The notes under the pieces are model-generated. The model had not been told where the DNA came from, did not search any database, and was given only the letters and a program-made list of their open reading frames with translations. This document shows positions 5,396 through 28,430 of a stretch of 58,841 bases of DNA, piece after piece; the first letter of the stretch is position 1, and every line of letters starts with the position of its first letter. A program made the translations under genes and the position numbers. The stretch lies in IMG/VR virus record IMGVR_UViG_3300023371_000069; one strand, given 5' to 3'. This stretch comes from a virus. Lineage: Duplodnaviria; Heunggongvirae; Uroviricota; Caudoviricetes.

Positions 5396-5465
5396 CGCGG
5401 CCCTAGCTGCCATGCAATAATACCCTACACAAAAAAAGTTCTACACATTTGTGCATCTTACCTAT

Positions 5466-5494
5466 TGACAAACATCCTGTAATGTGGTATACTG
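5466..5494 (+). promoter_or_regulatory. class 1 early promoter (TTGACAAA-17-TGgTATACT)
   Basis: Consensus -35 and extended -10, followed by a leader and an ATG. Confidence 0.6.
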
Positions 5495-5521
5495 TAGATA
5501 CAACAAAGGAACAGTGAGGTA

Positions 5522-5803
5522 ATGACAATGAGTGAGAAGGTACTGTGTGTGCTGTGTGCTATACTACTGGTAGTGACCTTCAATGCACTAGGTCAAGCAC
5601 AGCTTAATGATAGGTACACAAGAGAAGCTGTGGTAGTAGAGGTAGAGGGTAACACCATCAGCGCAGAGGACACCACAGGCAATGTGTGGTGCTATGATGT
5701 AGAGGGTGACACTGTACCATGTGTAGGCACAAGGGTAGTGCTAACCATGCTAGCCATGGGCAGTGATACTATCTATGATGACAGAGTAGTAGATGTAGAG
5801 TAA
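5522..5803 (+). CDS. small secreted or lipoprotein-like protein
   Basis: Has an N-terminal signal-like hydrophobic segment. It is promoter-driven and ends in TAA. Confidence 0.5.
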   Translation: MTMSEKVLCVLCAILLVVTFNALGQAQLNDRYTREAVVVEVEGNTISAEDTTGNVWCYDVEGDTVPCVGTRVVLTMLAMGSDTIYDDRVVDVE

Positions 5804-5926
5804 GGTACACAGCCTTACTCTATTATACTATGTAGTAGTAGCCACCGAGCACAGGCGTCAGGTCCCCTAGTGGGGCATACTGTAGGGGGTGCTAAAAAAA
5901 AGTTGCGTAAATAAGCAAAAAAACTC

Positions 5927-5955
5927 TTGACAAAAAGCTCCCGTAATGCTATAAT
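5927..5955 (+). promoter_or_regulatory. class 1 early promoter
   Basis: TTGACAAAaagctcccgtaaTGcTATAAT. Confidence 0.6.
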
Positions 5956-6008
5956 AAAGACACAAAGAGAGAGGGACACAACCTCACAGAGTAAAGGAGA
6001 TAACAACA

Positions 6009-6164
6009 ATGACCATTTCTAACAACATCGCTATGTGGATTGCTAACAGCAACCTTGACAATACTACTACTTGTCCTGAGTGGCTGGGTATCACTCTTGT
6101 GGCTCTAGTCGTAGCCTTTGGCGTAGCTGCTATTGCCACTATCATCGCTGTCAACAAGAACTAA
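6009..6164 (+). CDS. small membrane protein (51 aa)
   Basis: ATG follows AAGGAGA. It has one transmembrane helix and ends in TAA. Confidence 0.5.
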   Translation: MTISNNIAMWIANSNLDNTTTCPEWLGITLVALVVAFGVAAIATIIAVNKN

Positions 6165-6181
6165 TAGAGGAGGACAAGACA

Positions 6182-6403
6182 ATGAACAAGAGACCTATCA
6201 ACAAGATGCTGAGCACAGTAAGAGAGCTAAAGCCTGAGGTGCAGGCAAGCCATCAGTACAAGTACATCATCATGGTACTGAACAAGGACAACGAGGACAT
6301 CACCTACGCAGAGAAGCTGATGGTGAGAGACAACCTGCGTGTGCTGTGTAAGGTAGCAGGTGTGTCCTATGAGAGACTGCTGATGAGGGTGTGCCAAGAG
6401 TAA
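6182..6403 (+). CDS. hypothetical protein
   Basis: ATG has GAGGAGG upstream and lies in frame within track ORF 6080..6403. Confidence 0.5.
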   Translation: MNKRPINKMLSTVRELKPEVQASHQYKYIIMVLNKDNEDITYAEKLMVRDNLRVLCKVAGVSYERLLMRVCQE

Positions 6404-6443
6404 GGCACACCCTTTAATTGTGCAATGTGACGAATCCCGCCAT

Positions 6444-6468
6444 AGGCGCGCCAACGGTCCTGGCGCGC
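6444..6468. terminator. GC-rich hairpin (GGCGCGCC...GGCGCGCC)
   Basis: Perfect inverted repeat. It is the first of a family of GC hairpins placed after early operons. Confidence 0.5.
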
Positions 6469-6553
6469 CCTAATTGCCAGTATAACACATCCCAGCCATT
6501 TTGTCAAGAGGAAAATTAGAAAAAAAATAAATAATTATTTTTCCCAAAAGGTA

Positions 6554-6582
6554 TTGACAAATCGGTCTCCGTGTGGTATACT
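6554..6582 (+). promoter_or_regulatory. class 1 early promoter
   Basis: TTGACAAAtcggtctccgtgTGgTATACT. Confidence 0.6.
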
Positions 6583-6615
6583 AAGTACAACAAAAGAACA
6601 AAGGAGCTAAACACC

Positions 6616-6939
6616 ATGAAGAAGATTACCAAGACTGCCGAAGAGACCAAGAGAGACGAACTCGTCATCGCTACTCGCAATGCAAAGGACAAGATTGAGT
6701 ACTGTGTGAGAGTCATCAACCGCAGACAGAAGGCAATGGCTATGTTGCCCCAAGAGTCCGCAGAATACAAGATGTTTGCGGGCGATGTAACCGAGGATAA
6801 ATGGGTACTGGTTTCCGCTCTGCGTAGCTACGACAGAGCAAGGGAAGAACTGGCTGAGCACTGCCGAGCCTACCACCTCGCAGGAAATACTTTCCTTTCT
6901 GGCTATGAACTTTTGGAAATTCTCGCAGAAAAGGCTTGA
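6616..6939 (+). CDS. hypothetical protein
   Basis: ATG follows the leader aaaggagctaaacacc. Confidence 0.5.
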   Translation: MKKITKTAEETKRDELVIATRNAKDKIEYCVRVINRRQKAMAMLPQESAEYKMFAGDVTEDKWVLVSALRSYDRAREELAEHCRAYHLAGNTFLSGYELLEILAEKA

Positions 6940-6964
6940 CAAAAGCCTTTCTCTGTGATACAAT
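6936..6964 (+). promoter_or_regulatory. class 1 early promoter
   Basis: TTGACAAAagcctttctctgTGaTACAAT. Confidence 0.55.
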
Positions 6965-6990
6965 GTAGGTACAAAAGGAAAGGAACTGAA

Positions 6991-7431
6991 ATGAAAATGA
7001 TTTACTGTGGCTATCAGGGTAGTGGAAAATCTACCTACTGTAGAAATAACCCCAATACTACTGTTGACCTCGACAGCTCCGCATTTGTCAAGGTCGCAGG
7101 ATGGGAAGAAAACTATGTGCGGACGGCGGTTGCCCTCGCTACTGACAAGAATGTATTCATCTCCGCTCATCGTGTGGTGATTGAATACTGCATGAACAAC
7201 AACATTCCCTTTGTTATCCTCGCACCCTCGCAGAGCAAAGAGGCTTGGCGTGCTCGTCTTGAGTTCCGCTACCACAAGAACCCCATCCTCGCAAACTTTA
7301 AGGCAATCGCAGACTTCGAACAAAATTTCGACAACGACCTGCAATACTATCGCCTTTTGGAAAGCAAGGGCATTTGCGTGCGGTGGATTGAAGCCACAGT
7401 TGTGACAAACATTGGCGAAAAAATTTTTTGA
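6991..7431 (+). CDS. P-loop NTPase (putative nucleotide or polynucleotide kinase)
   Basis: Walker A motif GYQGSGKST near the N-terminus. ATG follows aaggaaaggaactgaa. Confidence 0.5.
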   Translation: MKMIYCGYQGSGKSTYCRNNPNTTVDLDSSAFVKVAGWEENYVRTAVALATDKNVFISAHRVVIEYCMNNNIPFVILAPSQSKEAWRARLEFRYHKNPILANFKAIADFEQNFDNDLQYYRLLESKGICVRWIEATVVTNIGEKIF

Positions 7432-7438
7432 AAAGGGG

Positions 7439-7467
7439 TTGACAAAACCCCTTTCCCGTGTTATAAT
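7439..7467 (+). promoter_or_regulatory. class 1 early promoter
   Basis: TTGACAAAacccctttcccgTGtTATAAT. Confidence 0.6.
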
Positions 7468-7498
7468 TAAGATACAAAAAGAGAGGAGAGTAAATCAA

Positions 7499-7825
7499 AT
7501 GTTAAAGAGCATGAGCATCACCGTGAGTTTCACCGACCACTGCTACACCGAACGCAGAGAAAGACTTGTAAAAATGGATAGAGAGTTAGGCTTCGGCGAA
7601 ATCATTTGCACCACAATTTACAGAGGAAAGAGAAACTGCTTGACTTCCACTGGTATCTTAATGGTAATGGATGCCAAGAGCAACATTCTTGTCACCGCCT
7701 ACCCTGCAAGATGGAAGATTGCCTGCAAGATGTTCTACGAAACTACTGGTGGTTATCCTCCTGCTGGTTACTCTGAAATCATCAGACGGGCAAAAGCATG
7801 GGACTGTGAAAATAATTGGATTTAG
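7499..7825 (+). CDS. hypothetical protein
   Basis: ATG follows agagaggagagtaaatcaa. Confidence 0.5.
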   Translation: MLKSMSITVSFTDHCYTERRERLVKMDRELGFGEIICTTIYRGKRNCLTSTGILMVMDAKSNILVTAYPARWKIACKMFYETTGGYPPAGYSEIIRRAKAWDCENNWI

Positions 7826-7828
7826 GGG

Positions 7829-7857
7829 TTGACAAATCCCTAAATCTATGGTATAAT
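7829..7857 (+). promoter_or_regulatory. class 1 early promoter
   Basis: TTGACAAAtccctaaatctaTGgTATAAT. Confidence 0.6.
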
Positions 7858-7887
7858 TTAATTACAAAAAGAAAAGAGGTAAACGAA

Positions 7888-8043
7888 ATGAGTAAGAAAA
7901 AGAAAAACACAATCGACCGCAGAATGTTCAAGAAAGAGGGAGAAGAACTTCAGCAGTATCTCCACTTTCGCAAGCGTGGCTCTGTGGTAGAAAGCAAGAA
8001 GAAATACAACAGACAGAAATTCAAAAGGGGTGATAATGGATGA
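7888..8043 (+). CDS. small basic protein
   Basis: ATG follows aaaagaggtaaacgaa. The protein is Lys/Arg-rich. Confidence 0.45.
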   Translation: MSKKKKNTIDRRMFKKEGEELQQYLHFRKRGSVVESKKKYNRQKFKRGDNG

Positions 8044-8264
8044 TTATTAAAGGGGCAGATGGTGAGTACGAAGCCACATGGAAGCTCGGCGAAGACTATG
8101 TTCATGTAGTCTATCGAAAGATAATTCATCCCAATTGGCCCATTTTCCGCACAAAATACTACTATTGCACAGTAATTCACAAAGAAGATTTCAACCAGAA
8201 GCGAGTGCGGGATGCTCTCCTTGTTAGAGAACATTACGAAAAAAAATGTGCTTGCGGGGGTTGA
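8040..8264 (+). CDS. hypothetical protein
   Basis: Overlaps the previous stop with ATGA. Confidence 0.45.
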   Translation: MIIKGADGEYEATWKLGEDYVHVVYRKIIHPNWPIFRTKYYYCTVIHKEDFNQKRVRDALLVREHYEKKCACGG

Positions 8265-8289
8265 CAAAATCCCCAAACCATGTTATAAT
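8261..8289 (+). promoter_or_regulatory. class 1 early promoter
   Basis: TTGACAAAatccccaaaccaTGtTATAAT. Confidence 0.6.
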
Positions 8290-8309
8290 AATGCCAAGAG
8301 GTGAGAACA

Positions 8310-8540
8310 ATGAAAACAGCAGCAGAAATAGCACGAGAGTGGCAAGCACAATTGCGTGACCCTCGCATTAGATGTCCTAACTGCGGGAGTAGTGCCCAAT
8401 CCGAACTGGTGTACCAGGACAATACAAGCAACCGCAGAGAGAAAAAAGACGATTACATTTGCGGGTGCGGGTGTCGGTTCAGGGCACATTTTACACTCAT
8501 TCAAACCGAGATACTGGAAATCGAAGCGCCTTACTACTAA
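8310..8540 (+). CDS. Zn-ribbon protein
   Basis: CPNCGS...CGCGC motifs. A hairpin terminator follows. Confidence 0.5.
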   Translation: MKTAAEIAREWQAQLRDPRIRCPNCGSSAQSELVYQDNTSNRREKKDDYICGCGCRFRAHFTLIQTEILEIEAPYY

Positions 8541-8593
8541 GGCGCTTTTTCCATTTTGCTTTTTCGGTCGCGCGCCCACGGCCCAGGCGCGCG
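8524..8593 (+). terminator. tandem hairpins (AAGCGCC..GGCGCTTTTTCC and the GC-rich CGCGCGCCC..GGGCGCGCG)
   Basis: Inverted repeats with a T-run after the first. Confidence 0.5.
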
Positions 8594-8599
8594 TTATTT

Positions 8600-8760
8600 C
8601 CATTATACCACAGCCCCAGCAATTTGTCAATAGGCAATTTGCACAAAAAATAAATAGTTGTTTTTCCTAAAATTGTGCTTGACTTTCTATTCCGGATGTG
8701 ATACAATGTTCTTGTGGTTGAGAGAGACCACTAAATCAAAAAAAAGTTCAAGAAAATGAA
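8600..8760. repeat. conserved intergenic unit, also seen near 6470, 10390, 12560, 14210, 15815, 17150 and 18165
   Basis: Shared sequence block (tTTCCATTATACCAC.GCCCCAGCAATTTGTCAA.AGG...TTGCACAAA...). Read on the minus strand it gives TTGACA-17-TGGTATAAT. A plus-strand promoter TTGACT-17-TGATACAAT lies at its end. Confidence 0.5.
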
Positions 8761-8769
8761 AAAAAGTTC

Positions 8770-8798
8770 TTGACAAACCGGGAAACTGGTGTTATAAT
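8770..8798 (+). promoter_or_regulatory. class 1 early promoter
   Basis: TTGACAAAccgggaaactggTGtTATAAT. Confidence 0.6.
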
Positions 8799-8835
8799 TA
8801 AGATACAAAAAGGAACTGAAAAGGAGATAATAACA

Positions 8836-9309
8836 ATGACTAAGGGTAATTTCTTCCGCTACTACAACAAGCTGACTGGCGCTGACCGCACTCTGATTTT
8901 CTTCGAGCGCAAGGGTATCATCTACATCTACAACTGCAAGCACATCGCTCCTCGTTGGGCACACGAAGAATTTGAGTCCTCCAAGAACGGCGGACAGCAG
9001 AAATTCAAGATGTACATCAGCGTATCCGAAAAGGATAAGCTGATTGCCAAGGGTGCAACCCCCATCATGACCAAGGCTGAATTTGAAGCCATTCCTTACA
9101 AGAACAAGGGTCACAAGTGCGAAGCCTATCTGCACAAGGCTTGCGGTCTGGGTGAGTACACTCCCGACCATGTCCGCTTTGACTACTGCGGTGATGTGGA
9201 AATCGGTGGCGTTCAGTATCAGGTCAAGTACGAAAACGCAAGCCTGACCAATGTGGATGTGCTCCACAAGGCACAGAAGCGGGCAAGAGAAATGAAAAAG
9301 GGAAAGTAA
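8836..9309 (+). CDS. hypothetical protein
   Basis: ATG follows aaaaggagataataaca. A hairpin of the form GGGAAAG..CTTTCCC follows the stop. Confidence 0.5.
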   Translation: MTKGNFFRYYNKLTGADRTLIFFERKGIIYIYNCKHIAPRWAHEEFESSKNGGQQKFKMYISVSEKDKLIAKGATPIMTKAEFEAIPYKNKGHKCEAYLHKACGLGEYTPDHVRFDYCGDVEIGGVQYQVKYENASLTNVDVLHKAQKRAREMKKGK

Positions 9310-9339
9310 AAAAAACTTTCCCTTTTTTCAAAAAAGGTA

Positions 9340-9368
9340 TTGACAAATCACGGTTTTGGGTGTATAAT
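9340..9368 (+). promoter_or_regulatory. class 1 early promoter
   Basis: TTGACAAAtcacggttttggGTgTATAAT. Confidence 0.6.
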
Positions 9369-9399
9369 TAAGGTACAAAAAGGAAAGGAACTGATACAA

Positions 9400-9852
9400 A
9401 TGGCAAAGCAGATGAACATCACAATTAACTTCGACATGGACGGCACAATCGCTGACCTCTATGGTGTAGAGAACTGGCTCGAATACCTCATCGCAGGTGA
9501 CACTTTCCCCTACGCAAACGCAAGACCTCTGCTCCACCTCTCCGCACTGGCTCGCAAGCTGAACGCACTTCAGCGGAACGGCTACAACCTCGCAGTTATC
9601 TCTTGGTTGAGCAAAAGTGGAACTGCTGAATACAACGAAGCAGTTACCGAAGTCAAGCTGAACTGGCTGAGAAAGCACCTGCCGAGCGTGAACTGGAACG
9701 AAATCCACATCGTTCCCTATGGCACTCCGAAGCAGAACTTCTGCAACAATCCTCTCGACATTCTGTTCGACGATGAAGAACGCAACAGAACGAACTGGAC
9801 AGGCAGAGCCTACGATGTGCAGAACATCTTGGAAATTCTCAGAGAAATCTGA
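9400..9852 (+). CDS. HAD-superfamily hydrolase (5'(3')-deoxyribonucleotidase-like)
   Basis: N-terminal FDMDGTIADL is the HAD DxDGT motif. The protein is about 150 aa. Confidence 0.55.
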   Translation: MAKQMNITINFDMDGTIADLYGVENWLEYLIAGDTFPYANARPLLHLSALARKLNALQRNGYNLAVISWLSKSGTAEYNEAVTEVKLNWLRKHLPSVNWNEIHIVPYGTPKQNFCNNPLDILFDDEERNRTNWTGRAYDVQNILEILREI

Positions 9853-9862
9853 GAATTTCCTC

Positions 9863-9892
9863 TTGACAAACGGCAATTGATGTGCTATAATT
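9863..9892 (+). promoter_or_regulatory. class 1 early promoter
   Basis: TTGACAAAcggcaattgaTGTGcTATAAT. Confidence 0.6.
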
Positions 9893-9922
9893 AAGACACA
9901 AAGAAGAAAGGAACTGATAAAA

Positions 9923-10072
9923 ATGTTAGAAATGATTTGCGCAATCCCCGAAGAAATCGGCTGGGCATTGGTTGGCTTTGTCGGAGCATTCGCCTTGATG
10001 ATGGCTGTCAAGGTCGGCAAGATAATCGTTGAAGCAATCAAAGAAAGATTGGAGGATGATGAAGAATGCTGA
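9923..10072 (+). CDS. small membrane protein (49 aa)
   Basis: ATG follows the leader. It has one transmembrane helix and ends in TGA. Confidence 0.45.
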   Translation: MLEMICAIPEEIGWALVGFVGAFALMMAVKVGKIIVEAIKERLEDDEEC

Positions 10073-10335
10073 AAACTGGAATTGTAGTTTGCCCCACTTG
10101 CGGGGGCGAGGTTGTTGAGTTCGATACTCTCGACATTGAGGTGGACAACACCACTGTGACCCTCTTTAAGGTTGGCGAGTGCGACCACTGCGGAAACCAT
10201 TACCAGTGGCACGAGGAATACACCCTTGCAGGATACCGCGACCTGGAACAGACCCAGGGCGAAAGCGAGGACGAGCCCGATGCGGACGAATGCGGGTTCG
10301 ACCCCTTCGCAGGTTGTTATACTTACGACTGCTGA
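10066..10335 (+). CDS. Zn-ribbon/acidic protein
   Basis: CPTCGG...CDHCG motifs. Ends in TGA. Confidence 0.45.
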   Translation: MLKTGIVVCPTCGGEVVEFDTLDIEVDNTTVTLFKVGECDHCGNHYQWHEEYTLAGYRDLEQTQGESEDEPDADECGFDPFAGCYTYDC

Positions 10336-10446
10336 AAAAGCAGTCGTTTGTTTTTGGCGGCGCGCTCACGGTCCAGGCGCGCCGATTTTCGTCAGAATAA
10401 CCAGTTTCAACAATTTTCCGTGCAATTTATTTGTGCAAAATAACAG

Positions 10447-10475
10447 TTGACAAATCCCAAAAGGTGTGATACAAT
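10447..10475 (+). promoter_or_regulatory. class 1 early promoter
   Basis: TTGACAAAtcccaaaaggtgTGaTACAAT. Confidence 0.55.
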
Positions 10476-10505
10476 AGTATCAACAAAGGAAAGGAACTGA
10501 TACAC

Positions 10506-10910
10506 ATGAAACTGGTTTACGATTGCGGACAATCCATCTCTCTGTCTCCTCGCAGAGATTTTGAAGAAACTTCTATTTGGTGGCACCTGCACCTGCTCGA
10601 TGCGGAAGAATCCCTCGACCGCACCAACCGCACTTACTACGACACTTTCGAGAGCTTTTTTGAAGCGGTCTGTGAAAACAAGGTAAGAAATGCAGAAGCC
10701 TACATCGGTCTGTTCAAGACCCCCAAGGTATTGGTGAAATGTGGCATGAACCACTATACTGTCACCAAGAGGAACTTCAAAGAGGTGTGCGTGTGGAACT
10801 ACACCAAAGAAGTCTCCCACCTGCCCATGTCCACCCTCATGGACAAACTTCCTGCGGACGAGTTCGCAGAATACCTGCGTGAAAGGGGAGTAGCCTTACA
10901 GCAAGGCTAA
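10506..10910 (+). CDS. hypothetical protein
   Basis: ATG follows aaaggaaaggaactgataca. Confidence 0.5.
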   Translation: MKLVYDCGQSISLSPRRDFEETSIWWHLHLLDAEESLDRTNRTYYDTFESFFEAVCENKVRNAEAYIGLFKTPKVLVKCGMNHYTVTKRNFKEVCVWNYTKEVSHLPMSTLMDKLPADEFAEYLRERGVALQQG

Positions 10911-10934
10911 TCCCCGGAAAAATTAAAAAAAGGT

Positions 10935-10964
10935 ATTGACAAATCAAACAATCTGTGCTATAAT
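10935..10964 (+). promoter_or_regulatory. class 1 early promoter
   Basis: TTGACAAAtcaaacaatcTGTGcTATAAT. Confidence 0.6.
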
Positions 10965-10994
10965 AAATTTATCAAGTGAAAGGAAATGATACCA

Positions 10995-11654
10995 ATGTTT
11001 ACTGAAAAAACTTTTGCAATTATCGACACTGAAACCCTCGGCGGTGCTTCTCAGGCGCACTGCCCTACCTACCACTGCGCTGGCATTGCTTTCACCAAGA
11101 GAGCAGAAATCAGCAGAATCAACATCGTGGTCATCGGCAACCTACTTTTGGATTCTGCGTTCTATGGCAAATTCAAAAAAGACTACTACCGCGACCTGCT
11201 CCGCGACCCTGCAACTATTATCTGCTACAACGAAGCAGAGGCAAGCGAAATCTTCTCTGCGTGGCTTGCTGAAAACAATGTGTCCTGCGCCTGCGCCCAC
11301 AACAGCGGTTTTGACTTCAACAAGACTTTCGTTGCTGAGTGTATCGAGGGAATGGAATTCATCGACACTTGGCAGGCATTTTTCGAGACCATCGGCAAGT
11401 ACACCAAGTACAACAAATTCTGCTGTGAAAATGGCTTTGTAACCAAGAGCGGAAACGTTCAGATGACCGCAGAAATCTGCTACCGCTTCATCAGCGGAGA
11501 CATTGAGTTCGTCGAGGAACACACCGCCCTCGCAGATTGTGAAATCGAAATGCAGATTCTGCGTGCGGTTTGGGCAACTCACCGCAAGTTTACTCGCAAT
11601 GTTCACAAGGGCGATTCCGCCTATCGCTTCCAAGTGGTCAAGGGCAGATTCTAA
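10995..11654 (+). CDS. DEDD-family 3'-5' exonuclease (DnaQ/RNase T-like)
   Basis: Exo I motif AIIDTETLG, Exo II motif HNSGFDF and Exo III motif HTALADCE. Confidence 0.6.
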   Translation: MFTEKTFAIIDTETLGGASQAHCPTYHCAGIAFTKRAEISRINIVVIGNLLLDSAFYGKFKKDYYRDLLRDPATIICYNEAEASEIFSAWLAENNVSCACAHNSGFDFNKTFVAECIEGMEFIDTWQAFFETIGKYTKYNKFCCENGFVTKSGNVQMTAEICYRFISGDIEFVEEHTALADCEIEMQILRAVWATHRKFTRNVHKGDSAYRFQVVKGRF

Positions 11655-11666
11655 AATCTGCCCTCC
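11641..11666 (+). terminator. hairpin terminator
   Basis: AGGGCAGATTCTAAAATCTGCCCT. Confidence 0.5.
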
Positions 11667-11682
11667 CGGGCGAAAAAAGGTA

Positions 11683-11712
11683 TTGACAAATTCAAAATCA
11701 TGTGCTATAATT
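11683..11712 (+). promoter_or_regulatory. class 1 early promoter
   Basis: TTGACAAAttcaaaatcaTGTGcTATAAT. Confidence 0.6.
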
Positions 11713-14507: not shown

Positions 14508-14542
14508 TTCCCCACAAAAGAAAAAAAGTTTCAAAAAACCTA

Positions 14543-14572
14543 TTGACAAACATCCAAAAGTGTGCTATAATA
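14543..14572 (+). promoter_or_regulatory. class 1 early promoter
   Basis: TTGACAAAcatccaaaagTGTGcTATAAT. Confidence 0.6.
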
Positions 14573-14602
14573 ATTACAGAAAACAAGAAAGGAACTGATA
14601 CT

Positions 14603-14848
14603 ATGAAAATGTTCAATGAAATGTCCCTCAAGTCCATCCGCAACAAGCTCAGCAAGGTCGGTGTCACTATGACCGACGAGCAGTTCAACTCCCTCACCTA
14701 CTCCGAACTCCGCAAGGTGTACAAGAAGTCCAAGAGGGCTTACGCACTCTATGAGCAGGTGGATGCCATTATCAACAAGCCAAAGGCTCCCACTCCTGCG
14801 GTGCCGATGCCTGCCAAGGACAACGACAAGGATGCCAGGGGGTTCTAA
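14603..14848 (+). CDS. hypothetical protein
   Basis: ATG follows aagaaaggaactgatact. Confidence 0.5.
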   Translation: MKMFNEMSLKSIRNKLSKVGVTMTDEQFNSLTYSELRKVYKKSKRAYALYEQVDAIINKPKAPTPAVPMPAKDNDKDARGF

Positions 14849-14888
14849 CCCCTTTGGCTCCGCCCGGAAAAATAATTTCCAAAAGGGT

Positions 14889-14918
14889 ATTGACAAACAG
14901 AGAGATTTGTGCTATAAT
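14889..14918 (+). promoter_or_regulatory. class 1 early promoter
   Basis: TTGACAAAcagagagattTGTGcTATAAT. Confidence 0.6.
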
Positions 14919-14942
14919 AACCACAGAAAGGAAGTGAAGTGA

Positions 14943-15422
14943 ATGGATACGAAATTGCTGATTGTGTTCATCGCTCTGAACATCGCCAATGTTATCATTC
15001 AAACTGTAAAATCTATCGCCACTGTTAAATGCGGAAAGGTGTCTGCCGCAGTTATCAATGCGGTTGCCTATGGTCTGTACACCATCGTCACTGTTTACTT
15101 AATGTGTGAACTTGACCTCTACCTCAAAGCAGGAATTGTGGCTCTGTGTAATTTGGTGGGTGTCTATGTGGTAAAACTCATTGAAGAAAAGGCACGCAAG
15201 GACAAGCTTTGGAAGATTGAAGCAACTGTCTTTGACCCCTACACCAAAAGCCTGCATTGTGATTTGACCGCAGAAGAAATCCCTTGCAACTACATTCCCA
15301 AAATCGGCAAGTGGTCTGTGTTCAACATTTACTGCGACAGCCAAGAGAAAAGCAAGAAAGTCAAAGCCTTGCTTGAAAAATACGATGCAAAATACTTTGT
15401 GAGTGAAAGCAAGACCTTGTAA
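14943..15422 (+). CDS. membrane protein (4 predicted transmembrane helices)
   Basis: Hydrophobic helices are visible in the translation. Confidence 0.5.
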   Translation: MDTKLLIVFIALNIANVIIQTVKSIATVKCGKVSAAVINAVAYGLYTIVTVYLMCELDLYLKAGIVALCNLVGVYVVKLIEEKARKDKLWKIEATVFDPYTKSLHCDLTAEEIPCNYIPKIGKWSVFNIYCDSQEKSKKVKALLEKYDAKYFVSESKTL

Positions 15423-15428
15423 AAAGGT

Positions 15429-15458
15429 CTTGACAAACTCCACCAAATGTGCTATAAT
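15429..15458 (+). promoter_or_regulatory. class 1 early promoter
   Basis: TTGACAAActccaccaaaTGTGcTATAAT. Confidence 0.6.
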
Positions 15459-15490
15459 TAAGACAATCCAAGAGGAAAGGAACTGATACA

Positions 15491-15769
15491 ATGAAAGCAA
15501 CTGGAATTATCCGCAGAGTTGATGACCTCGGCAGAGTGGTTATCCCCAGAGAAATCCGTCGGTCAATGGGCATCCGCGAGGGCGAACCCCTCGAAATCTT
15601 CATCGATGGCAGAGATACTGTCTGCTTCCGCAAGTACGAAGCCAATCTGAATGGCGAAATTGACCATCTGGTGGACACCATCGAAACCTGCGTGGACGAC
15701 TACGAAAAGATGGCACAAATCAAGAAGCTTCTGGGCGAAGTGCGGAAGCTGGTGAAAAGCGAGGAGTAA
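15491..15769 (+). CDS. AbrB-family transition-state regulator/antitoxin-like protein
   Basis: GIIRRVDDLGRVVIPREIRRSMGIREGEPLEIF closely matches the AbrB/SpoVT N-domain. Confidence 0.6.
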   Translation: MKATGIIRRVDDLGRVVIPREIRRSMGIREGEPLEIFIDGRDTVCFRKYEANLNGEIDHLVDTIETCVDDYEKMAQIKKLLGEVRKLVKSEE

Positions 15770-16008
15770 AACCCTCGCTTTTTGCGCGGCCCGGGCGCGA
15801 CTGTGCCCGGCCGAATTTACCATTATACCATGCCCCGCACAATTTGTCAAGAGGAAATGTTGCACAAAATAATCTTTTTAATTTTCCTGTAATTTGTGCA
15901 GTTTGCCTATTGCAATTCGCTTTTGGATGTGGTATACTATCTATGTCAGTAAGGGAGAGACCCAAGCGGACAGACCGAAAAAAAGTTTGAAAAACTTAAA
16001 AAAACCTC

Positions 16009-16038
16009 TTGACAAACCCCCAAAGATGTGATATAATG
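16009..16038 (+). promoter_or_regulatory. class 1 early promoter (first of a tandem pair)
   Basis: TTGACAAAcccccaaagaTGTGaTATAAT. Confidence 0.55.
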
Positions 16039-16105
16039 AATACATCAAAGGGAGAGAGAAAGCCAAAGGTTCAAAAAAGATTTTCAAAAAAATCAAAAAA
16101 ACCTC

Positions 16106-16135
16106 TTGACAAATCGCTCAACCTATGATATAATA
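16106..16135 (+). promoter_or_regulatory. class 1 early promoter (second of the tandem pair)
   Basis: TTGACAAAtcgctcaaccTaTGaTATAAT. Confidence 0.55.
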
Positions 16136-16184
16136 AATACACAAAGACAAGGACAGTCTTAAAAACCAGAAAGGAATTGATACT

Positions 16185-16553
16185 ATGGCTACTACTCAGA
16201 AGATTACCAAGGCTCAGAAGTTTGCAATGCTCAAGGCTATCCCCGCTGTTGCGGAGAACGCAATGCTCGTGGAGTTCATCGAGCACGAGTTGGAGTTGCT
16301 CGCCAAGAAGAACTCCGCTGAGAAGAAACCCACTGCTCAGCAGACCGCCAATGCTTCCATCGGCGAAGCCATCGTGGCTCATCTCCAGAGCCAGCCCAAC
16401 CGCCTCTTTACCATCACTGAGGTTATCAAGGAAGTGCCTGCGTGTGCTGAGTTGACCAATCAGCGAGTGTCCGCAATCGTGCGTGGTCTCATCGGCACCT
16501 CTGTGGAGCGTGTGGAAGAGAAGCGAAAGGCTTATTTCAGAGCCATTCGCTGA
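16185..16553 (+). CDS. early protein family A, copy 2
   Basis: See 13156..13515. Confidence 0.55.
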   Translation: MATTQKITKAQKFAMLKAIPAVAENAMLVEFIEHELELLAKKNSAEKKPTAQQTANASIGEAIVAHLQSQPNRLFTITEVIKEVPACAELTNQRVSAIVRGLIGTSVERVEEKRKAYFRAIR

Positions 16554-16608
16554 GCCACTCCCCAAGGGGGGGCAATAGCCCCCCCAAAATGGGGCACGGA
16601 ATTTCAAA

Positions 16609-16638
16609 AAAGGTCTTGACAAACCGCCCAAGATGTGC
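16609..16638 (+). promoter_or_regulatory. class 1 early promoter
   Basis: TTGACAAAccgcccaagaTGTGcTATACT. Confidence 0.6.
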
Positions 16639-16669
16639 TATACTGTAAGTACAGAAAGGGGGTAAACCA

Positions 16670-17041
16670 ATGGCAGAAAGTCAAGTCGAACGCATTATGC
16701 GAAATCTGAAATGCTCCAAAGAAGAAGCCGAACAGATTATCGCAGACGACAAGGCAATCGACAGAGGTGAGCGAATGGCTTTTGACCTCTCACCTGAAGC
16801 CGAAAAGCAAGCCAAAAAATTCGCAAATACTGGCACAAGGCAGACAAATGGGCAGAAAACCGAGCGAAAACGCAAGGAAAACCCCACAAAAGCCACGATA
16901 ATTGCCGAAATTGCTCAGTTTTTGGCTGAAAATGGCTACGAAATGGTCGAAATCACCAATAAAGAGCGTCAAATCGCCTTAAAAGTTGGTGAAAATGCCT
17001 ACGAACTGACGCTTGTGCAGAAACGCAAGCCAAAAAGTTGA
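16670..17041 (+). CDS. early protein family B, copy 2
   Basis: See 13641..14000. Confidence 0.55.
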   Translation: MAESQVERIMRNLKCSKEEAEQIIADDKAIDRGERMAFDLSPEAEKQAKKFANTGTRQTNGQKTERKRKENPTKATIIAEIAQFLAENGYEMVEITNKERQIALKVGENAYELTLVQKRKPKS

Positions 17042-17044
17042 GAA

Positions 17045-17075
17045 AATCGCCCCAAAAGGGCGATTTTTTCGTTAT
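17045..17075 (+). terminator. rho-independent terminator
   Basis: ATCGCCCCAAAAGGGCGAT hairpin followed by TTTTTTCG. Confidence 0.65.
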
Positions 17076-17373
17076 TTTTTCCAAATTAAATTTAAATTTG
17101 TGCAATTTGCACAAAAATCGGCCGGCCGCACACAGATGTGCGGCCCGGTATTCGGCAAAATGCACAAGTTCAACAAGTTTTTTACCCAATTATTTGTACA
17201 ACATTACCACTTGCATTTTCCTAAAAATCTGCTATAATTAGTAGTGTCAAGGGGATGAAGTAAACCCCCGCAGATGGGTCGGCGCAGAGGGTTGAAAAAT
17301 GTTGGGCAGAGGGGTTAGATTGTCCCACCAATCAGACCACCGAAACTTTTTCAAAAAACTTTTGAAAAACCAC

Positions 17374-17402
17374 TTGACAAACAGCACAAGATGTGCTATA
17401 AT
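17374..17402 (+). promoter_or_regulatory. class 1 early promoter driving a non-coding transcript
   Basis: TTGACAAAcagcacaagaTGTGcTATAAT. No ORF follows for about 200 nt. Confidence 0.5.
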
Positions 17403-17409
17403 GAGTATG

Positions 17410-17615
17410 TAATCAAGAGGGGAACTCCTTCGAGGCAAGACCGCAACAGATGGTGGAAACAGACACAGGCGAATTGAAACTCTACAACTCCTACGCAAGA
17501 TTCCCCCCTACTAGGGTGAGTGGTGAGCAACGAAAGGGTGCGAGTAGACTCAAGGCAGGGGGCAGAAACAAGTCCAGTGAGCGCAAGGATGCTGTGGGAA
17601 TAAAAAAAATAGTCG
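17410..17615 (+). ncRNA. candidate promoter-driven small RNA (about 200 nt)
   Basis: Purine-rich and ORF-less. Ends in an A-run before the next promoter. Confidence 0.3.
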
Positions 17616-17636
17616 CGAATATTTTTTGAAAACCTC

Positions 17637-17666
17637 TTGACAAACTCAAAACCATGTGCTATAATA
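17637..17666 (+). promoter_or_regulatory. class 1 early promoter
   Basis: TTGACAAActcaaaaccaTGTGcTATAAT. Confidence 0.6.
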
Positions 17667-17719
17667 AGTATGTAATCAAGGGAAGGAAAACCCTAAAAAA
17701 CCAGAAAGGAACTGATACT

Positions 17720-18088
17720 ATGGCAAACACTAAGAAGCTGACTAAGAAGGACCATTTCAACACCCTGCTGACCCTGGCTGAGGTCAAGTCCAACCTTGCG
17801 CTGGTCGAGTTCATCGAGCATGAGCTGGAACTCCTGGCGAAGAAGAACTCTGCTGAGAAGAAGCCTACTGCCCAGCAGGTCGCCAATGCTGGTGTGGCAG
17901 AAGCCATTCTGTCCCACATGAGCGCAGACCCCAATCGTCTGTTCTCCATCACTGAGCTGATTAAGGAAGTGCCTGCCTGCGCAGAGCTGACTAATCAGCG
18001 AGTGAGCGCCATCGTGCGTGGCATGATTGGTGTGTCTGTCGAGCGCATCGAGGAGAAGCGCAAGGCGTTCTTCAGGGTCATCCAGTGA
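17720..18088 (+). CDS. early protein family A, copy 3
   Basis: See 13156..13515. Confidence 0.55.
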   Translation: MANTKKLTKKDHFNTLLTLAEVKSNLALVEFIEHELELLAKKNSAEKKPTAQQVANAGVAEAILSHMSADPNRLFSITELIKEVPACAELTNQRVSAIVRGMIGVSVERIEEKRKAFFRVIQ

Positions 18089-18100
18089 TGACCCCTTCCT

Positions 18101-18136
18101 CCCCCTGCCCCCAATTCGTGGGGCAGGGGCTTTTTT
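18101..18136 (+). terminator. rho-independent terminator
   Basis: CCCCTGCCCCCAATTCGTGGGGCAGGGG hairpin followed by CTTTTTT. Confidence 0.65.
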
Positions 18137-18277
18137 GCGCCGTGCGCCAACGAGTGTGGCGCCCGGAATTCGTCAAAATAACTAGTCCCCGTAAATTTCC
18201 AATCGAATTTTTTGTGCAGTTTGTCATCTTGATTTTTCCCGCAATTGGTGGTATACTAATCCTAAGAGGTGAGGCAA

Positions 18278-18448
18278 ATGACCGCAGAAGAAATGCGCAA
18301 GGCTAAAGCTGAATTGCACAAAGTTATTATTGATACTGTTTTATCTTTTGGGGGAACTCTCCATGACGATGCAACCATGTATCGATACATTATCGAATTA
18401 GCGTCTAATGAGCTTTTAGCTTGTGTTCCTTTTTCCAATGAAAATTAA
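18278..18448 (+). CDS. small hypothetical protein (56 aa)
   Basis: Driven by the plus-strand promoter at the end of the intergenic unit (TTGTCA..TGgTATACT). SD AGAGGTGAGG lies upstream. Confidence 0.4.
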   Translation: MTAEEMRKAKAELHKVIIDTVLSFGGTLHDDATMYRYIIELASNELLACVPFSNEN

Positions 18449-18456
18449 AAAAGTGC

Positions 18457-18486
18457 TTGACAAATTATTAAGTCTGTGCTATAATA
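18457..18486 (+). promoter_or_regulatory. class 1 early promoter
   Basis: TTGACAAAttattaagtcTGTGcTATAAT. Confidence 0.6.
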
Positions 18487-18534
18487 AGTATGTAATCAAG
18501 GGAGCGAGTGCTCCACAAGAAAGGGTAATTTACT

Positions 18535-19140
18535 ATGAGAACCATTAAACTGTTTGAGCGTGAAATCAATCTGATTGTCAATGAAGACCTGCGTATGGCG
18601 GTCAAGTCTTACATGGAAGAAGCCACCCCTGACTACTTCTGGACAGATGGTGCTTCCTCTTCTGGCAAGTATCATCCCCAGTTTTCGCAGGGCATCGGCG
18701 GTCTGGTTCGTCACACCAAGGCGGTTGTGATGTTCGCTGAAGAACTGCTCCGCATGAGTTCCTACGCCTACATGAAAGACGAGTACAAGGACTTCGTAAT
18801 TGCGGCTTGTATCATCCATGATACCGCAAAGTATGGTGTCGATTGGTTTGACAAGGCAGAATACAAGAACCACGCAAGAAACGCAAGCAAGGCTTTTGCA
18901 GGTTGGTGCGAACAGGTGTTCGATTTTACTCCCCATTTTCTTCTGCTGAACGCAGTTGAAAGTCACATGGGTCAATGGTCTACTGAACGAGAGGACAGAC
19001 CTTTCACCAGCGTGGACAGATGTGTTCACATGGCGGACTACATGGCAAGTCGCTCTTTCATCGACATTCCTTCCATCACAGAGGAATACAACAAAATCGC
19101 TTGCCAGTGGGCGGCGGAACACCACGAACTGCCTTTCTAA
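18535..19140 (+). CDS. HD-domain phosphohydrolase-like protein
   Basis: Contains a His..HD motif (..KYHPQF.., CIIHDTAKYG) and several conserved His/Asp residues. Confidence 0.45.
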   Translation: MRTIKLFEREINLIVNEDLRMAVKSYMEEATPDYFWTDGASSSGKYHPQFSQGIGGLVRHTKAVVMFAEELLRMSSYAYMKDEYKDFVIAACIIHDTAKYGVDWFDKAEYKNHARNASKAFAGWCEQVFDFTPHFLLLNAVESHMGQWSTEREDRPFTSVDRCVHMADYMASRSFIDIPSITEEYNKIACQWAAEHHELPF

Positions 19141-19186
19141 AGGCAGGGAGTGGAAACCCCGGCGAAAAATATTTTTCAAAAACCTA

Positions 19187-19216
19187 TTGACAAATCTCCA
19201 AGAATGTGCTATAATG
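19187..19216 (+). promoter_or_regulatory. class 1 early promoter
   Basis: TTGACAAAtctccaagaaTGTGcTATAAT. Confidence 0.6.
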
Positions 19217-19244
19217 AGTTCATCAAAGGAAAGGAACTGATACA

Positions 19245-19391
19245 ATGAACTGTCTGAAATGTGATAACTACTGGCGCACCGACATTGACGAAAGCCGATG
19301 CGATAGATGCGGATGCCAAGAAGAATCCAACACCAACCCCAAAGAAAGCGAGGACAAAGGCAATGAGCAAAAAGCATCTGGGCTGTGCTGA
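19245..19391 (+). CDS. small Cys-rich protein
   Basis: ATG follows aaggaaaggaactgataca. CxxC motifs present. Confidence 0.45.
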   Translation: MNCLKCDNYWRTDIDESRCDRCGCQEESNTNPKESEDKGNEQKASGLC

Positions 19392-19500
19392 TAGTGGCTG
19401 TGGCTACTACTGGCAGGACGAGGACGAAGATTACCCCCGCTGTCATTTCGATGGCTTCGGCAAAGCACCCTGTGAGGAGGATGACTGGGATGAAGAATAA
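19363..19500 (+). CDS. small Cys-rich acidic protein
   Basis: Overlapping-frame ORF. CADSGCGYYW and an acidic tail. Confidence 0.4.
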   Translation: MSKKHLGCADSGCGYYWQDEDEDYPRCHFDGFGKAPCEEDDWDEE

Positions 19501-19687
19501 GAAAACCCGATTCATTAACCCCAAGCCCACCGCAGAAAATAGATGCATGCGGTGTACCCATGTGGGGCAGGAAACCACAGACGATGTGGCTTGCTGTAAC
19601 TGTTGCGAGGATGGCGAGTTTTTCGATGACATTGCGGAAGTCGAAGACCGCTATACGCTGGATGACCTCGGTCCGAATTGGTGGTGA
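19490..19687 (+). CDS. small Cys-rich protein
   Basis: CMRCTH..CCNCCEDGEFF. A strong terminator follows. Confidence 0.45.
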   Translation: MKNKKTRFINPKPTAENRCMRCTHVGQETTDDVACCNCCEDGEFFDDIAEVEDRYTLDDLGPNWW

Positions 19688-19716
19688 GACCCCCGCAGGG
19701 GTCTCATTTTTTTTTC
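19686..19716 (+). terminator. rho-independent terminator
   Basis: GAGACCCCCGCAGGGGTCTC hairpin followed by ATTTTTTTTT. Confidence 0.7.
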
Positions 19717-19726
19717 ATTTTACCAC

Positions 19727-19756
19727 TTGACAAGTGCGGCCCGGTATGGTATAATA
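19727..19756 (+). promoter_or_regulatory. sigma70-like promoter followed by a GC-hairpin-rich untranslated region
   Basis: TTGACAagtgcggcccggtaTGgTATAAT. Positions 19760-19960 carry several GC palindromes. Confidence 0.45.
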
Positions 19757-20068
19757 ATGGTGGGGTTCAACGGGCCGCGGACGGAGGCCAAGGCCCGATT
19801 TTCCGACCGGTACACCCCATATGCAAATTTTTTGCTACTTCTAGCGACTTTTCATATGCACTTAATTTTCCCGTAAAGTGAGCCCCGGTCGGGAGCCGAC
19901 CGGTCCTACAAAAACCGCCCGCATATACGCGGGCCGACCGGTAAAAATATGTTTTTTTAATATTATAACATATTTTTTTATAAAAATCAAGGCCGAACGG
20001 CCATTTGATTTTTATAAAATTTTTTTGTATAATAATAATACAATAAGAAAAGAAAGAGGTATATACCA

Positions 20069-20536
20069 ATGGTTATTGATAAGAATTATTTCCTGACCCG
20101 TCTGCAGAATGGTGAGGATATGACTGCTATCGGCAACGAGATTGCCGCAATGATGAATGCCGCTATCGACGAGCACAATGCTGCTCTAGAGGCCGAGGCC
20201 GCAAAGCAGGCTGAGGTAGAGAAGGAAGCCACCAAGAGAGACCTAATTGAAGAGATGGTCGATATCATCAAGGAGCTGGCTATTTTGGAGGGTATGGACC
20301 CCGATGAGATGACCCTTTCCGACGAGGAAATGGACCAGCTGGTTGCGGCTTTCACTGAGATGTTTGCGGCCATGCGCGATTTGAAGAAGATGTTTGCGGA
20401 CCTGGAGGCTAAGCTGGACTCCGACAAGAGCGGCTCAGTGCGTCTTCATCACCCTGGTCCTGCGAGCGGCAGAATTACTCCTGTGGCAAAGAGCGACGAG
20501 CAAATTCTGGCCGATTTTATCAAGATGTTTAATTAA
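20069..20536 (+). CDS. acidic coiled-coil protein
   Basis: Class 2-like promoter at 19990-20030 with leader aagaaagaggtatatacca. Rich in E/D and A. Confidence 0.5.
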   Translation: MVIDKNYFLTRLQNGEDMTAIGNEIAAMMNAAIDEHNAALEAEAAKQAEVEKEATKRDLIEEMVDIIKELAILEGMDPDEMTLSDEEMDQLVAAFTEMFAAMRDLKKMFADLEAKLDSDKSGSVRLHHPGPASGRITPVAKSDEQILADFIKMFN

Positions 20537-20611
20537 TGTGATGAGAAAGACGTCTGTTTATTCTATAGCTAGCTACGAAGACCAAGAGCAGGCAAATTGA
20601 ATTATGAAAGA

Positions 20612-28429: not shown

Positions 28430-28430
28430 A

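Follow-up and report, generated by a model that had tools for sequence, protein, structure and literature searches.

Introduction

Gut phages using genetic code 15 were described by Borges et al. (bioRxiv 10.1101/2021.08.26.457843), together with a model in which the code is switched between the early and the late stages of infection. In the same study, release factor 2 (RF2) was found to be encoded by the TAG-recoded Lak and 'Agate' phages, and recoding was proposed to originate from low guanine plus cytosine (GC) content and mutation bias. Recoding of TAG or TGA in crAss-like phages is cited by Borges et al. and in the Zeta crAss-like paper (PMC12386605). Here we analyze a stretch of 58,841 nucleotides, the IMG/VR virus record IMGVR_UViG_3300023371_000069 (further referred to as the window), which belongs to a large tailed phage with TAG codons inside its late packaging and head genes and with approximately 60 consecutive plus-strand genes, at 5.5-39.4 kb, that are essentially free of TAG in either role, as a sense codon or as a terminator. 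We consider it probable that in this phage TAG is reassigned to glutamine (Gln; genetic code 15), that the new code is applied in a part of the genome, and that the TAG-free early genes are due to a temporal code switch. The above study of code-15 gut phages reportedly appeared later in Nat Microbiol (2022).

The window phage is of a known kind, combining code 15, a suppressor transfer RNA (tRNA), RF2 and early genes compatible with the standard code. As in the Lak and Agate phages, TAG read as Gln is concentrated in structural and late genes, a suppressor tRNA with the CUA anticodon and an RF2 are encoded by the phage, the genes for the code change are themselves written in the standard code, and the host presumably uses the standard code. 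It differs from these phages in that the TAG-free part is a defined array of consensus promoters together with an RF2 operon, that there are two suppressor tRNAs, one of them with an unusual conserved extra arm, that the loss of early TAG terminators is quantified within the family, and that RF2 is about 50% identical to proteins of Oscillospiraceae. Reassignment mainly in late genes and phage-encoded suppressor tRNAs are shared with the crAss-like phages; however, the latter are podoviruses of Bacteroidetes, whereas the window represents a large phage of the Firmicute type with SPbeta-like Yon domains, and the two have no DNA similarity. New here are the sharply bounded TAG-free block, a family-level figure for the lost TAG terminators, and the low-TAG relatives L102 and L136.

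Sequences and gene calls

The same phage is present, at 99.98-99.99% identity, in many ENA, JGI and Logan assemblies found by exact-protein matches. These assemblies extend the window by 8.2 kb on the left and by 8.4 kb on the right, so that 75.5 kb were examined. Genes were predicted by a gene caller that uses codon usage and ribosome-binding sites (RBS). The run under the standard code served for stop-codon counts, and the run with TAG as a sense codon, for in-frame TAGs. All 113 genes of the latter run end in TAA or TGA by construction; their extensions past TAG are either short or backed by homology.

For the comparison within the family, the same gene caller was applied to 80 IMG/VR loci carrying the sigma-factor-like gene of the window (phrog_5767, further the sigma-like gene), taken with 10-kb flanks. 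The alignment of the sigma-like gene contained 81 sequences, with 80 IMG/VR homologues of 64-99% identity. Geobacillus virus E3 and Enterococcus phage VRE9_3, used as a source of stop-codon frequencies, have GC of 0.30-0.32 and thus are not GC-matched to the window; composition was controlled instead by off-frame stop triplets of the same genes and by uncultured family members with GC of 0.32-0.40.

TAG as a glutamine codon

In the codon alignment of four strains, the codons opposite TAG are CAG (19 cases), CAA (15) and others (5); no TGG, TAY, AAG, GAG, TTG or TCG was found opposite TAG in this alignment. In the alignment of the sigma-like gene, otherwise invariant Gln columns contain CAA, CAG and TAG only, with counts of, for example, 38/8/35, 59/5/17 and 74/2/5, respectively. 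Moreover, the acceptor stems of both suppressor tRNAs, described below as Sup1 and Sup2, match those of the two Gln tRNAs of the phage (the UGGGG...CCCCA-G73 type). Given the exchange of TAG with CAA and CAG and the Gln-type acceptor stems, TAG is to be read as glutamine, that is, genetic code 15. At the level of sequence comparison, TAG is shown to be a Gln sense codon in the late packaging/head genes and in some other genes. Several of the TAG-interrupted genes already appear in public assemblies as unbroken proteins with Q at the TAG positions.

Two other sources were uninformative about the amino acid, since the positions concerned are variable: three distant sigma homologues, in which E, K, I and V stand opposite the TAGs, and a paralogue of the PD-(D/E)XK endonuclease-like gene within the window.

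It is very improbable that TAG encodes some other residue, be it pyrrolysine or, by way of the long variable arm of Sup2, serine, leucine or tyrosine. Both CUA tRNAs are labelled 'Pyl' by ARAGORN, but this is its label for any CUA anticodon. Sup2 indeed resembles Ser tRNAs in its long variable arm and G73, and the residues facing the window's TAG positions in the three distant homologues are E, K, I or V, not Q. On the other hand, these positions of the sigma-like gene are merely variable columns, 34 of the 39 codons opposite TAG between the strains are CAA or CAG, the invariant-Gln columns exchange with TAG only, and the acceptor stems are of the Gln type. No pyrrolysine genes were found among the scanned window proteins, no genome-wide search being made; Sup1 folds as a normal cloverleaf in the general tRNA model, and the hallmarks of a pyrrolysine decoding system were not found.

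The initial annotation of the window, made from the sequence by itself, had argued that TGA remains a stop codon, and this conclusion holds. Approximately one quarter of the genes terminate with TGA (about 25 of the 111 tallied by block, of them 14-16 in the early array), the phage RF2 is predicted to read UGA, and there is no UCA anticodon among the 39 tRNAs. Reassignment of TGA to tryptophan (code 4) found no support in the tRNA set, which contains tRNA-Trp(CCA) and no tRNA(UCA); the lack of in-frame TGA follows from the construction of the gene calls. Treating TGA or TAA as a sense codon only lengthens open reading frames (ORFs) non-specifically and does not improve the ORF structure.

Distribution of in-frame TAG codons

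In total, 24 in-frame TAGs were found in 15 of the 113 genes called with TAG as a sense codon. Their distribution over the blocks of the examined region is as follows.

Left of 1587, minus strand: late packaging/head module (order of genes in relatives: sigma, PhoH, phrog_3314, terminase, portal); 12 in-frame TAGs in 3176 codons
1789-5118: genes to the left of the early array; 2 in-frame TAGs in 1060 codons
5450-20540, plus strand: early-gene array of approximately 33-38 small genes, mostly behind a sigma-A-type consensus promoter, with 19-21 TAA and 14-16 TGA stops; 1 in-frame TAG in 3404 codons
7499-7843, plus strand: the only array gene with TAG (7823-7825), followed by TAA five codons downstream (7841-7843)
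23157-39439, plus strand: middle block of 27 genes with class II promoters; no TAG in 4810 codons (counted from 23000, the RF2 gene included)
40706-58671, plus strand: array of 39 tRNA genes with interspersed small genes and class II promoters
Genes between the tRNAs: 5 in-frame TAGs in 2017 codons, all five in two endonuclease-like genes

The early and middle blocks taken together contain one TAG in 8214 codons, compared to 12 in 3176 codons of the late module (Fisher test, p = 2.9e-5). The share of TAG among Gln-type codons is 0.4% and 9.5%, respectively. Composition does not explain this contrast, since off-frame TAG occurs at about 0.75 of the codon-shuffle expectation equally in all blocks. 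The array is best described as code-neutral, as TAG is avoided there as a sense codon as strongly as it is avoided as a stop. Hence the missing TAG stops of the array alone do not show reassignment; the proof is provided by other regions of the window and by the relatives.

The single TAG of the array, at 7823, is the sole ambiguous case among the TAG-sense gene calls: it may be a stop, a Gln codon or both, and the C-terminus of the homologue from strain L014 does not align. In the related strains L014 and L018 (about 87-94% nucleotide identity), genes of the promoter array end in TAA or TGA only, early TAG is confined to a few genes adjoining the sigma-like gene, and the late genes contain 18-22 TAGs.

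The initial annotation had explained the absence of TAG terminators by TAG being a sense codon genome-wide. The part about TAG having a sense meaning stands; the part about the entire genome does not agree with the single TAG in the early and middle blocks. It is improbable that TAG is an ordinary sense codon used uniformly in the genome, the array lacking TAG stops since TAG terminates nowhere. No gene in the examined region clearly needs a TAG terminator, and suppressor tRNAs and RF2 are present, as this explanation requires. However, the rate of the late module (0.38% of codons), if uniform, predicts about 31 TAGs in the early and middle blocks. CAG is common in these blocks (145 codons), but TAG makes up about 0.7% of TAG plus CAG, compared to 19% in the late module. 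The tenfold contrast between the early and late sides is also seen in 38 relatives. The use of code 15 appears to be limited to a part of the genome and, probably, to a part of the infection cycle.

Genes read through TAG

The following TAG-containing genes lie within the window.

1-492, minus strand: 5' part of the YonG_N/phrog_3314 gene (405 amino acids), which extends leftward out of the window; TAGs at 439-441 and 115-117, a third beyond the window
535-1587, minus strand: sigma-like gene, 350 amino acids, ending in TAA, the first gene of the late packaging/head module; TAGs at codons 16, 31, 94 and 226 (1540-1542, 1495-1497, 1306-1308 and 910-912)
3209-3505, plus strand: small gene, 98 amino acids; TAG at 3449-3451
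3707-4231, plus strand: DUF7352 gene, 174 amino acids; TAG at 4001-4003
21472-21663, minus strand: small gene adjoining the ScpB-like gene; TAG at 21529-21531
22047-22661, minus strand: winged-helix/ScpB-like gene (phrog_3396); TAG at 22251-22253
39516-40244, plus strand: HNH/homing-endonuclease-like gene, 242 amino acids; TAGs at 39621-39623 and 39639-39641
56023-56430, plus strand: PD-(D/E)XK (PDDEXK_5) endonuclease-like gene, 135 amino acids; TAGs at 56029, 56038 and 56158

Profile matches span TAG codons in several of these genes. The sigma-like gene, with two TAGs within the first 31 codons, gives a single match (E = 2.4e-51, residues 29-346) that spans two TAGs, and it is collinear with its homologues from Enterococcus, Brevibacillus and faecal phages. 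The match of the phrog_3314 gene (E = 1.1e-58) covers residues 2-345, and that of the ScpB-like gene, residues 18-191 including the TAG. In the late module, three TAGs are spanned by the profile match of the portal protein (536 amino acids, phrog_2739, E = 3e-81), and a TAG-containing protein of 578 amino acids is the terminase by synteny. Under the standard code, the late module falls into fragments.

For the genes at 3209-3505 and 3707-4231, the orthologues from L014 are informative. In the former, homology found by tblastn continues past the TAG, which is aligned with Q (GGxCTMFC vs QCQCTMFC). In the latter, the orthologue is an ORF of 178 amino acids without TAG, which aligns end-to-end with 57% identity over residues 1-174.

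The HNH-like gene matches phrog_4538 over residues 9-220 and phrog_374 (E = 1.4e-37), with both TAGs spanned. The first TAG stands opposite Q in an internal repeat (WLCxCECG vs WICQCECG), and the part 3' of the TAGs, if taken alone, would begin with TTG and has no RBS. The PDDEXK_5 gene is located between a perfect promoter (55731-55759) and the suppressor tRNAs, directly upstream of the latter; it is called as a 135-amino-acid protein with PF11645 in some assemblies. Its paralogue without TAG is located at 53105-53512. The HNH-like and PDDEXK_5 genes are the only TAG-containing genes within the otherwise TAG-free plus-strand blocks. Mobile endonuclease-like genes with TAG may be tolerated there only as late, suppressor-dependent products.

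An additional observation concerns the region next to these genes. At 4642-4645 the window has AAA and the otherwise identical contig L004 has AAAA. L004 contains an intact ORF of 254 amino acids, which this homopolymer difference splits in the window into 4355-4714 and 4792-5118. The difference may reflect an error of sequencing or assembly, a frameshift specific to the strain, or a slippery site.

Stop codons of the early and middle blocks

The initial annotation had stated that the small promoter-driven genes of the array and the operons at 23000-40600 end in TAA or TGA. Under the standard code, 38 ORFs were called at 5450-20540, with 21 TAA, 16 TGA and one TAG, and 30 ORFs at 23000-40600, with 25 TAA, four TGA and one TAG. 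The statement is therefore true for 37 and 29 ORFs, respectively. The exception in the array is 7499-7825, with TAA five codons on; the exception in the second region is 39516-39623, an N-terminal fragment of the HNH-like gene and thus a piece of a read-through gene. The four TGA-ending genes cited in support (9400-9852, 10066-10335, 16185-16553 and 19490-19687) were correct. Many genes with TAG as their sole plausible terminator would have spoken against reassignment; no gene that clearly needs it was found in about 75 kb.

Among the off-frame stop triplets of the same genes, which set the chance level, TAG accounts for about 12%. In standard-code relatives its share among actual stops is 13% in VRE9_3 (22 of 165) and 10% in Geobacillus virus E3 (13 of 131). 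Given these rates, the probability to observe at most one TAG is approximately 0.06-0.14 for 33 genes of the array and 0.002-0.012 for 62 genes of both blocks. Thus the rarity of TAG stops is real, the array by itself being weakly significant and suggestive.

The same numbers bear on another explanation, that the standard code is used throughout and TAG stops are absent fortuitously or owing to TAG being the rarest of the stops and a generally under-represented trinucleotide. The probability for the array alone would allow this, and TAG is in fact under-represented: on the plus strand, in all frames, it was observed 67 times against 253 expected from base composition, in addition to the off-frame depletion mentioned above. 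Nevertheless, this explanation is scarcely credible. In-frame TAGs lie inside conserved late genes, where they alternate with CAA and CAG, the phage carries two tRNA(CUA) genes and RF2, the late module would be fragmented, and the standard-code members of the family use TAG for 14% of early stops. A variant in which the interrupted genes are pseudogenes is opposed by their conservation across dozens of contigs.

Comparison with related phages

Standard-code relatives with a sigma-like gene 26-53% identical to that of the window include the Enterococcus phages VRE9_1-4, EF1, EF5 and H1 (134-142 kb), Geobacillus E3, Brevibacillus Sundance and the faecal contig MT836163. As in the window phage, the sigma-like gene heads the packaging/head module in these genomes, and the phrog_18912/34186 cluster, the tetrahydrofolate (THF) dehydrogenase gene, tRNA clusters and many small early genes are common to both. 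Unlike the window phage, these relatives use TAG as an ordinary stop and have lower GC (0.29-0.32), and VRE9_3 has no annotated CUA tRNA or RF2.

Among the 80 loci, 38 non-redundant ones are recoded. TAG constitutes 1.03% of their late-side codons and 0.10% of their early-side ones. Of the 836 early-side ORFs called in them under the standard code, only 27 (3.2%) end in TAG. In eight standard-code relatives (GC 0.32-0.40), this number is 25 of 176 (14.2%; p = 1.4e-7 compared to the recoded loci, an optimistic value for the reason given below), and three in-frame TAGs were found in 23462 late-side codons. That the missing TAG terminators go together with recoding, as had been proposed from the window, is thus seen at the family level.

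An alternative relates the order of events: early depletion of TAG may be ancestral, a precondition of recoding caused by low GC or mutation bias, and not a result of selection after recoding. TAG depletion in standard-code relatives of recoded phages was described by Borges et al. (10.1101/2021.08.26.457843), and L102 and L136, with nine late TAGs in 7073 codons, already have no TAG-ending ORFs among 42 early ones. In contrast, the 14.2% of TAG-ending early ORFs in the eight standard-code family members and the TAG at the end of the portal-like gene of MT836163 (a standard-code faecal contig, 53% identical) speak against an ancestral depletion, and low GC is no explanation, since the array is the GC-richest part of the window (0.45-0.48). 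We consider the ancestral origin rather unlikely; it would be compatible with a temporal code switch and does not exclude it.

The loci L102-L104 and L136, with the sigma-like gene 73-84% identical to that of the window, have 3-6 late TAGs per approximately 3500 codons, and none of their 42 early ORFs ends in TAG. These relatives may be transitional between the standard code and full recoding.

The possibility that the TAGs of the sigma-like gene are specially conserved was also considered. In four close strains, four of the six TAG columns are invariant (p = 0.02); however, across the 80 relatives the TAG positions are lineage-specific, with 0-7 TAGs per gene, and not denser than in other late genes, and no special role is claimed for these codons.

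One annotation in a standard-code relative deserves mention. In the GenBank entry of Geobacillus virus E3 (L017, 59519-63622), topoisomerase II (GP69) is annotated with a confirmed in-frame stop and a fusion product established by peptide sequencing, which would be stop-codon read-through.

Release factor 2 and suppressor tRNAs

The following genes could change the code.

34983-36065, plus strand: release factor 2, 360 amino acids, with the SPF and GGQ motifs and without in-frame TAG or TGA
56434-56508, plus strand: Sup1, tRNA with anticodon CUA and an ordinary cloverleaf (ARAGORN; Rfam tRNA model, 47.1 bits)
56509-56605, plus strand: Sup2, tRNA with anticodon CUA, abutting Sup1 without a spacer (ARAGORN; Rfam tRNA model, 54.2 bits)

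RF2 contains the PCRF (PF03462) and RF-1 (PF00472) domains with the motifs VRVSPFDSQ and GKGGQHVNK. It scores 445.5 bits with TIGR00020 prfB (cutoff 370), whereas the models of release factor 1 (RF1) yield 250-262 bits, below their cutoffs of 400-423. Judging by these scores and motifs, the phage protein is a UAA/UGA-specific factor that would not read UAG. The nearest bacterial homologues, about 50% identical, come from Oscillospiraceae. The gene lies within the cluster phrog_18912 - phrog_34186 - phrog_18912, which in Enterococcus phage VRE9_3 is conserved but lacks RF2; hence RF2 is a lineage-specific insertion.

The tRNA array, identified by ARAGORN and confirmed with Rfam, includes tRNA-Trp(CCA) and two Gln tRNAs, with anticodons UUG (51361-51436) and CUG (51506-51581); no UCA or UUA anticodon was found among its 39 tRNAs. 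The region 40.6-58.8 kb is poor in ORFs due to the tRNA array and other RNAs, and no single stop reassignment repairs it. Among these RNAs is a full-length ROOL RNA at 52033-52624 (Rfam RF03087, 312.6 bits, gathering score 99.1). Directly 3' of it, at 52631-52766, a 136-nt segment weakly matches the tRNA model (33.3 bits) and possibly represents a tRNA interrupted by an insert or intron. A partial match to OLE RNA at 58280-58363 (RF01071 positions 439-592, 53.5 bits, gathering score 50) is marginal and may be spurious.

The acceptor of Sup1 is Gln-like (U1, G2-C71, G3-C70, G73 and encoded CCA), and that of Sup2 is of the Gln type (U1-A72, G2-C71, G3-C70, G73). Sup2 has five arms, an anticodon stem of effectively 4 bp and an insertion of 24-27 nt in the variable region. 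The 7-nt loop of the extra arm, CUCUGAC, exactly repeats the anticodon loop found in the phage tRNA-Gln(CUG). It is less likely that Sup2 is a tRNA-Gln(CUG) carrying an insert 3' of the D arm, since CUA falls into the anticodon loop and the CUG hairpin into the variable region according to both ARAGORN and the Rfam tRNA model.

A pattern search revealed six more Sup2-like tRNAs (L180-L185) in unrelated metagenomic and viral contigs. In the alignment of the seven sequences, 96% of cells pair, and compensatory changes are found in 18 of the 26 pairs, in all five helices and including five of five pairs of the extra arm; no shuffled alignment reaches the observed values. The search pattern prescribed both loops, so that the evidence comes from the stems alone. 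Within an incomplete coverage of the literature, no account of such a tRNA was found. We tentatively suggest, as a doubtful possibility still worth stating, that Sup2 may be an undescribed kind of tRNA with a decoy loop of Gln identity for charging by the host, which, together with the TAGs of the sigma-like gene, would enable a suppressor-dependent code switch. Such a loop would let an anticodon-dependent glutaminyl-tRNA synthetase (GlnRS), or glutamyl-tRNA synthetase (GluRS) plus GatCAB, accept a CUA tRNA otherwise rejected. The arm, if functional in this way, would be of interest to research on tRNA identity and to genetic-code engineering.

Promoters and leaders

The description of the array as promoter-driven in the initial annotation is borne out by 21 exact plus-strand sites TTGACA-17-(TG)-TATAAT at 5927-19755, compared to none in shuffled sequence. 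Three classes of promoters can be distinguished. Class I, in the array at 5.9-19.8 kb, consists of TTGACAAA, a variable GC-rich spacer and TGnTATAAT. Class II has a nearly invariant AT-rich spacer, TTGATTTTTATAAAAAAATATGATATAAT, and is represented by 17 copies at 19.9-58.4 kb, in the operons and the tRNA region; its sites in the middle block are at 22995, 27438, 29401, 30400, 32629 and 34409, the last one just upstream of RF2. The third class is a divergent pair, 1616 (minus strand) and 1727 (plus strand), with the common spacer AAGAAAAATTTT. The sigma-like gene lies behind the near-consensus promoter of this pair (1616-1644, minus strand), and a perfect promoter is found at 55731, ahead of the suppressor tRNAs. 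A regulator may bind these promoters, as suggested by their conserved spacers.

Many early genes and genes of the tRNA region also have a leader/RBS motif, AGAAAGGAA(c/t/a)TGATAC(a), directly 5' of ATG, for example at 9400, 9923, 10506, 11744, 15491, 19245, 27516 and 50285.

Phage lineage and host

Coding is dense on the plus strand at approximately 1.8-40.6 kb and is followed by the tRNA-rich stretch (40.7-58.7 kb); GC varies along the window from 0.35 to 0.48. Megablast of the segment 30000-40000 against GenBank phages yielded no nucleotide match; likewise, a 50-mer of the RF2 gene had no exact counterpart in IMG/VR, nor had a 30-mer across the Sup1/Sup2 junction in the JGI metagenome contigs. 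In protein searches, the nearest phages were large phages of Firmicutes (the Enterococcus VRE9/EF1 group, Brevibacillus Sundance, Geobacillus E3 and Mammaliicoccus phages). One window protein has homologues on contigs up to 207 kb, and the contigs of this lineage attain approximately 200 kb, IMGVR_UViG_3300045988_151351 being one of those with 190-207 kb. The source of the window is a large tailed phage, whose gene content is similar to that of the SPbeta-like phages and the Enterococcus VRE9/EF1 group.

The host is probably a gut Firmicute, perhaps a member of Oscillospiraceae. Indirect hints are the nearest homologues of RF2, the sigma-A type promoters and the hosts of the cultured relatives, which infect Firmicutes. 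The affinity of RF2 to Oscillospiraceae does no more than hint at the host or at the gene donor. That the host uses the standard code is suggested, indirectly, mainly by the absence of TAG from the early genes.

A probable temporal code switch

The temporal switch that we consider probable, which is the same as in the model of Borges et al. for such phages, would proceed as follows. At the start of infection TAG would be read as a stop by the host RF1, and an in-frame TAG in an early gene would be a nonsense codon. Later, when the suppressor tRNA has accumulated, a TAG terminator of an early gene would be read through. Early genes would have to work under both codes, and selection would remove TAG from them in both roles, leaving TAA and TGA at their ends; termination at UAA and UGA would be reinforced by RF2. 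The suppressor tRNAs and the release factor would be produced with or among early genes compatible with the host code. The tRNA array with the suppressors indeed lies just downstream of the TAG-free genes, on the same strand. Genes carrying TAG would yield full-length products only once tRNA-Gln(CUA) is present, and the code change would act as a translational delay for late functions, including those of the sigma-like gene, the portal, the terminase-like gene and the two endonuclease-like genes.

Several points weigh against this scenario. We infer the early timing of the array from sigma-A-type consensus promoters and from the order of genes in relatives, and the host with its genetic code, from the hints given above. 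Two of the TAG-containing genes (3209-3505 and 3707-4231, plus strand) sit behind the perfect consensus promoter at 1727, and since both this promoter and that at 1616 precede genes with TAG, promoter strength and TAG content are not cleanly separable. The TAGs of the sigma-like gene are lineage-specific and not denser than elsewhere, so that a special gating role for this gene is not demonstrated. The related loci share a phylogeny and are not independent samples, which makes the p-values at the family level optimistic. Finally, the counts cover about 75 kb of a genome of roughly 200 kb.

Implications

Annotation of such contigs under the standard code fragments their late genes. When a contig lacks the late region, missing early TAG terminators are a usable, if weak, flag of recoding. 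The difference between 3% and 14% gives a number to something that is usually assumed, namely, that recoded members of a family lose their early TAG terminators. In the window, the parts that change the code, the suppressor tRNAs and RF2, sit among TAG-free genes, and the late genes depend on the new code. A single locus thus shows how a phage lives with two codes, keeping the genes that depend on the host without the ambiguous codon in any role.

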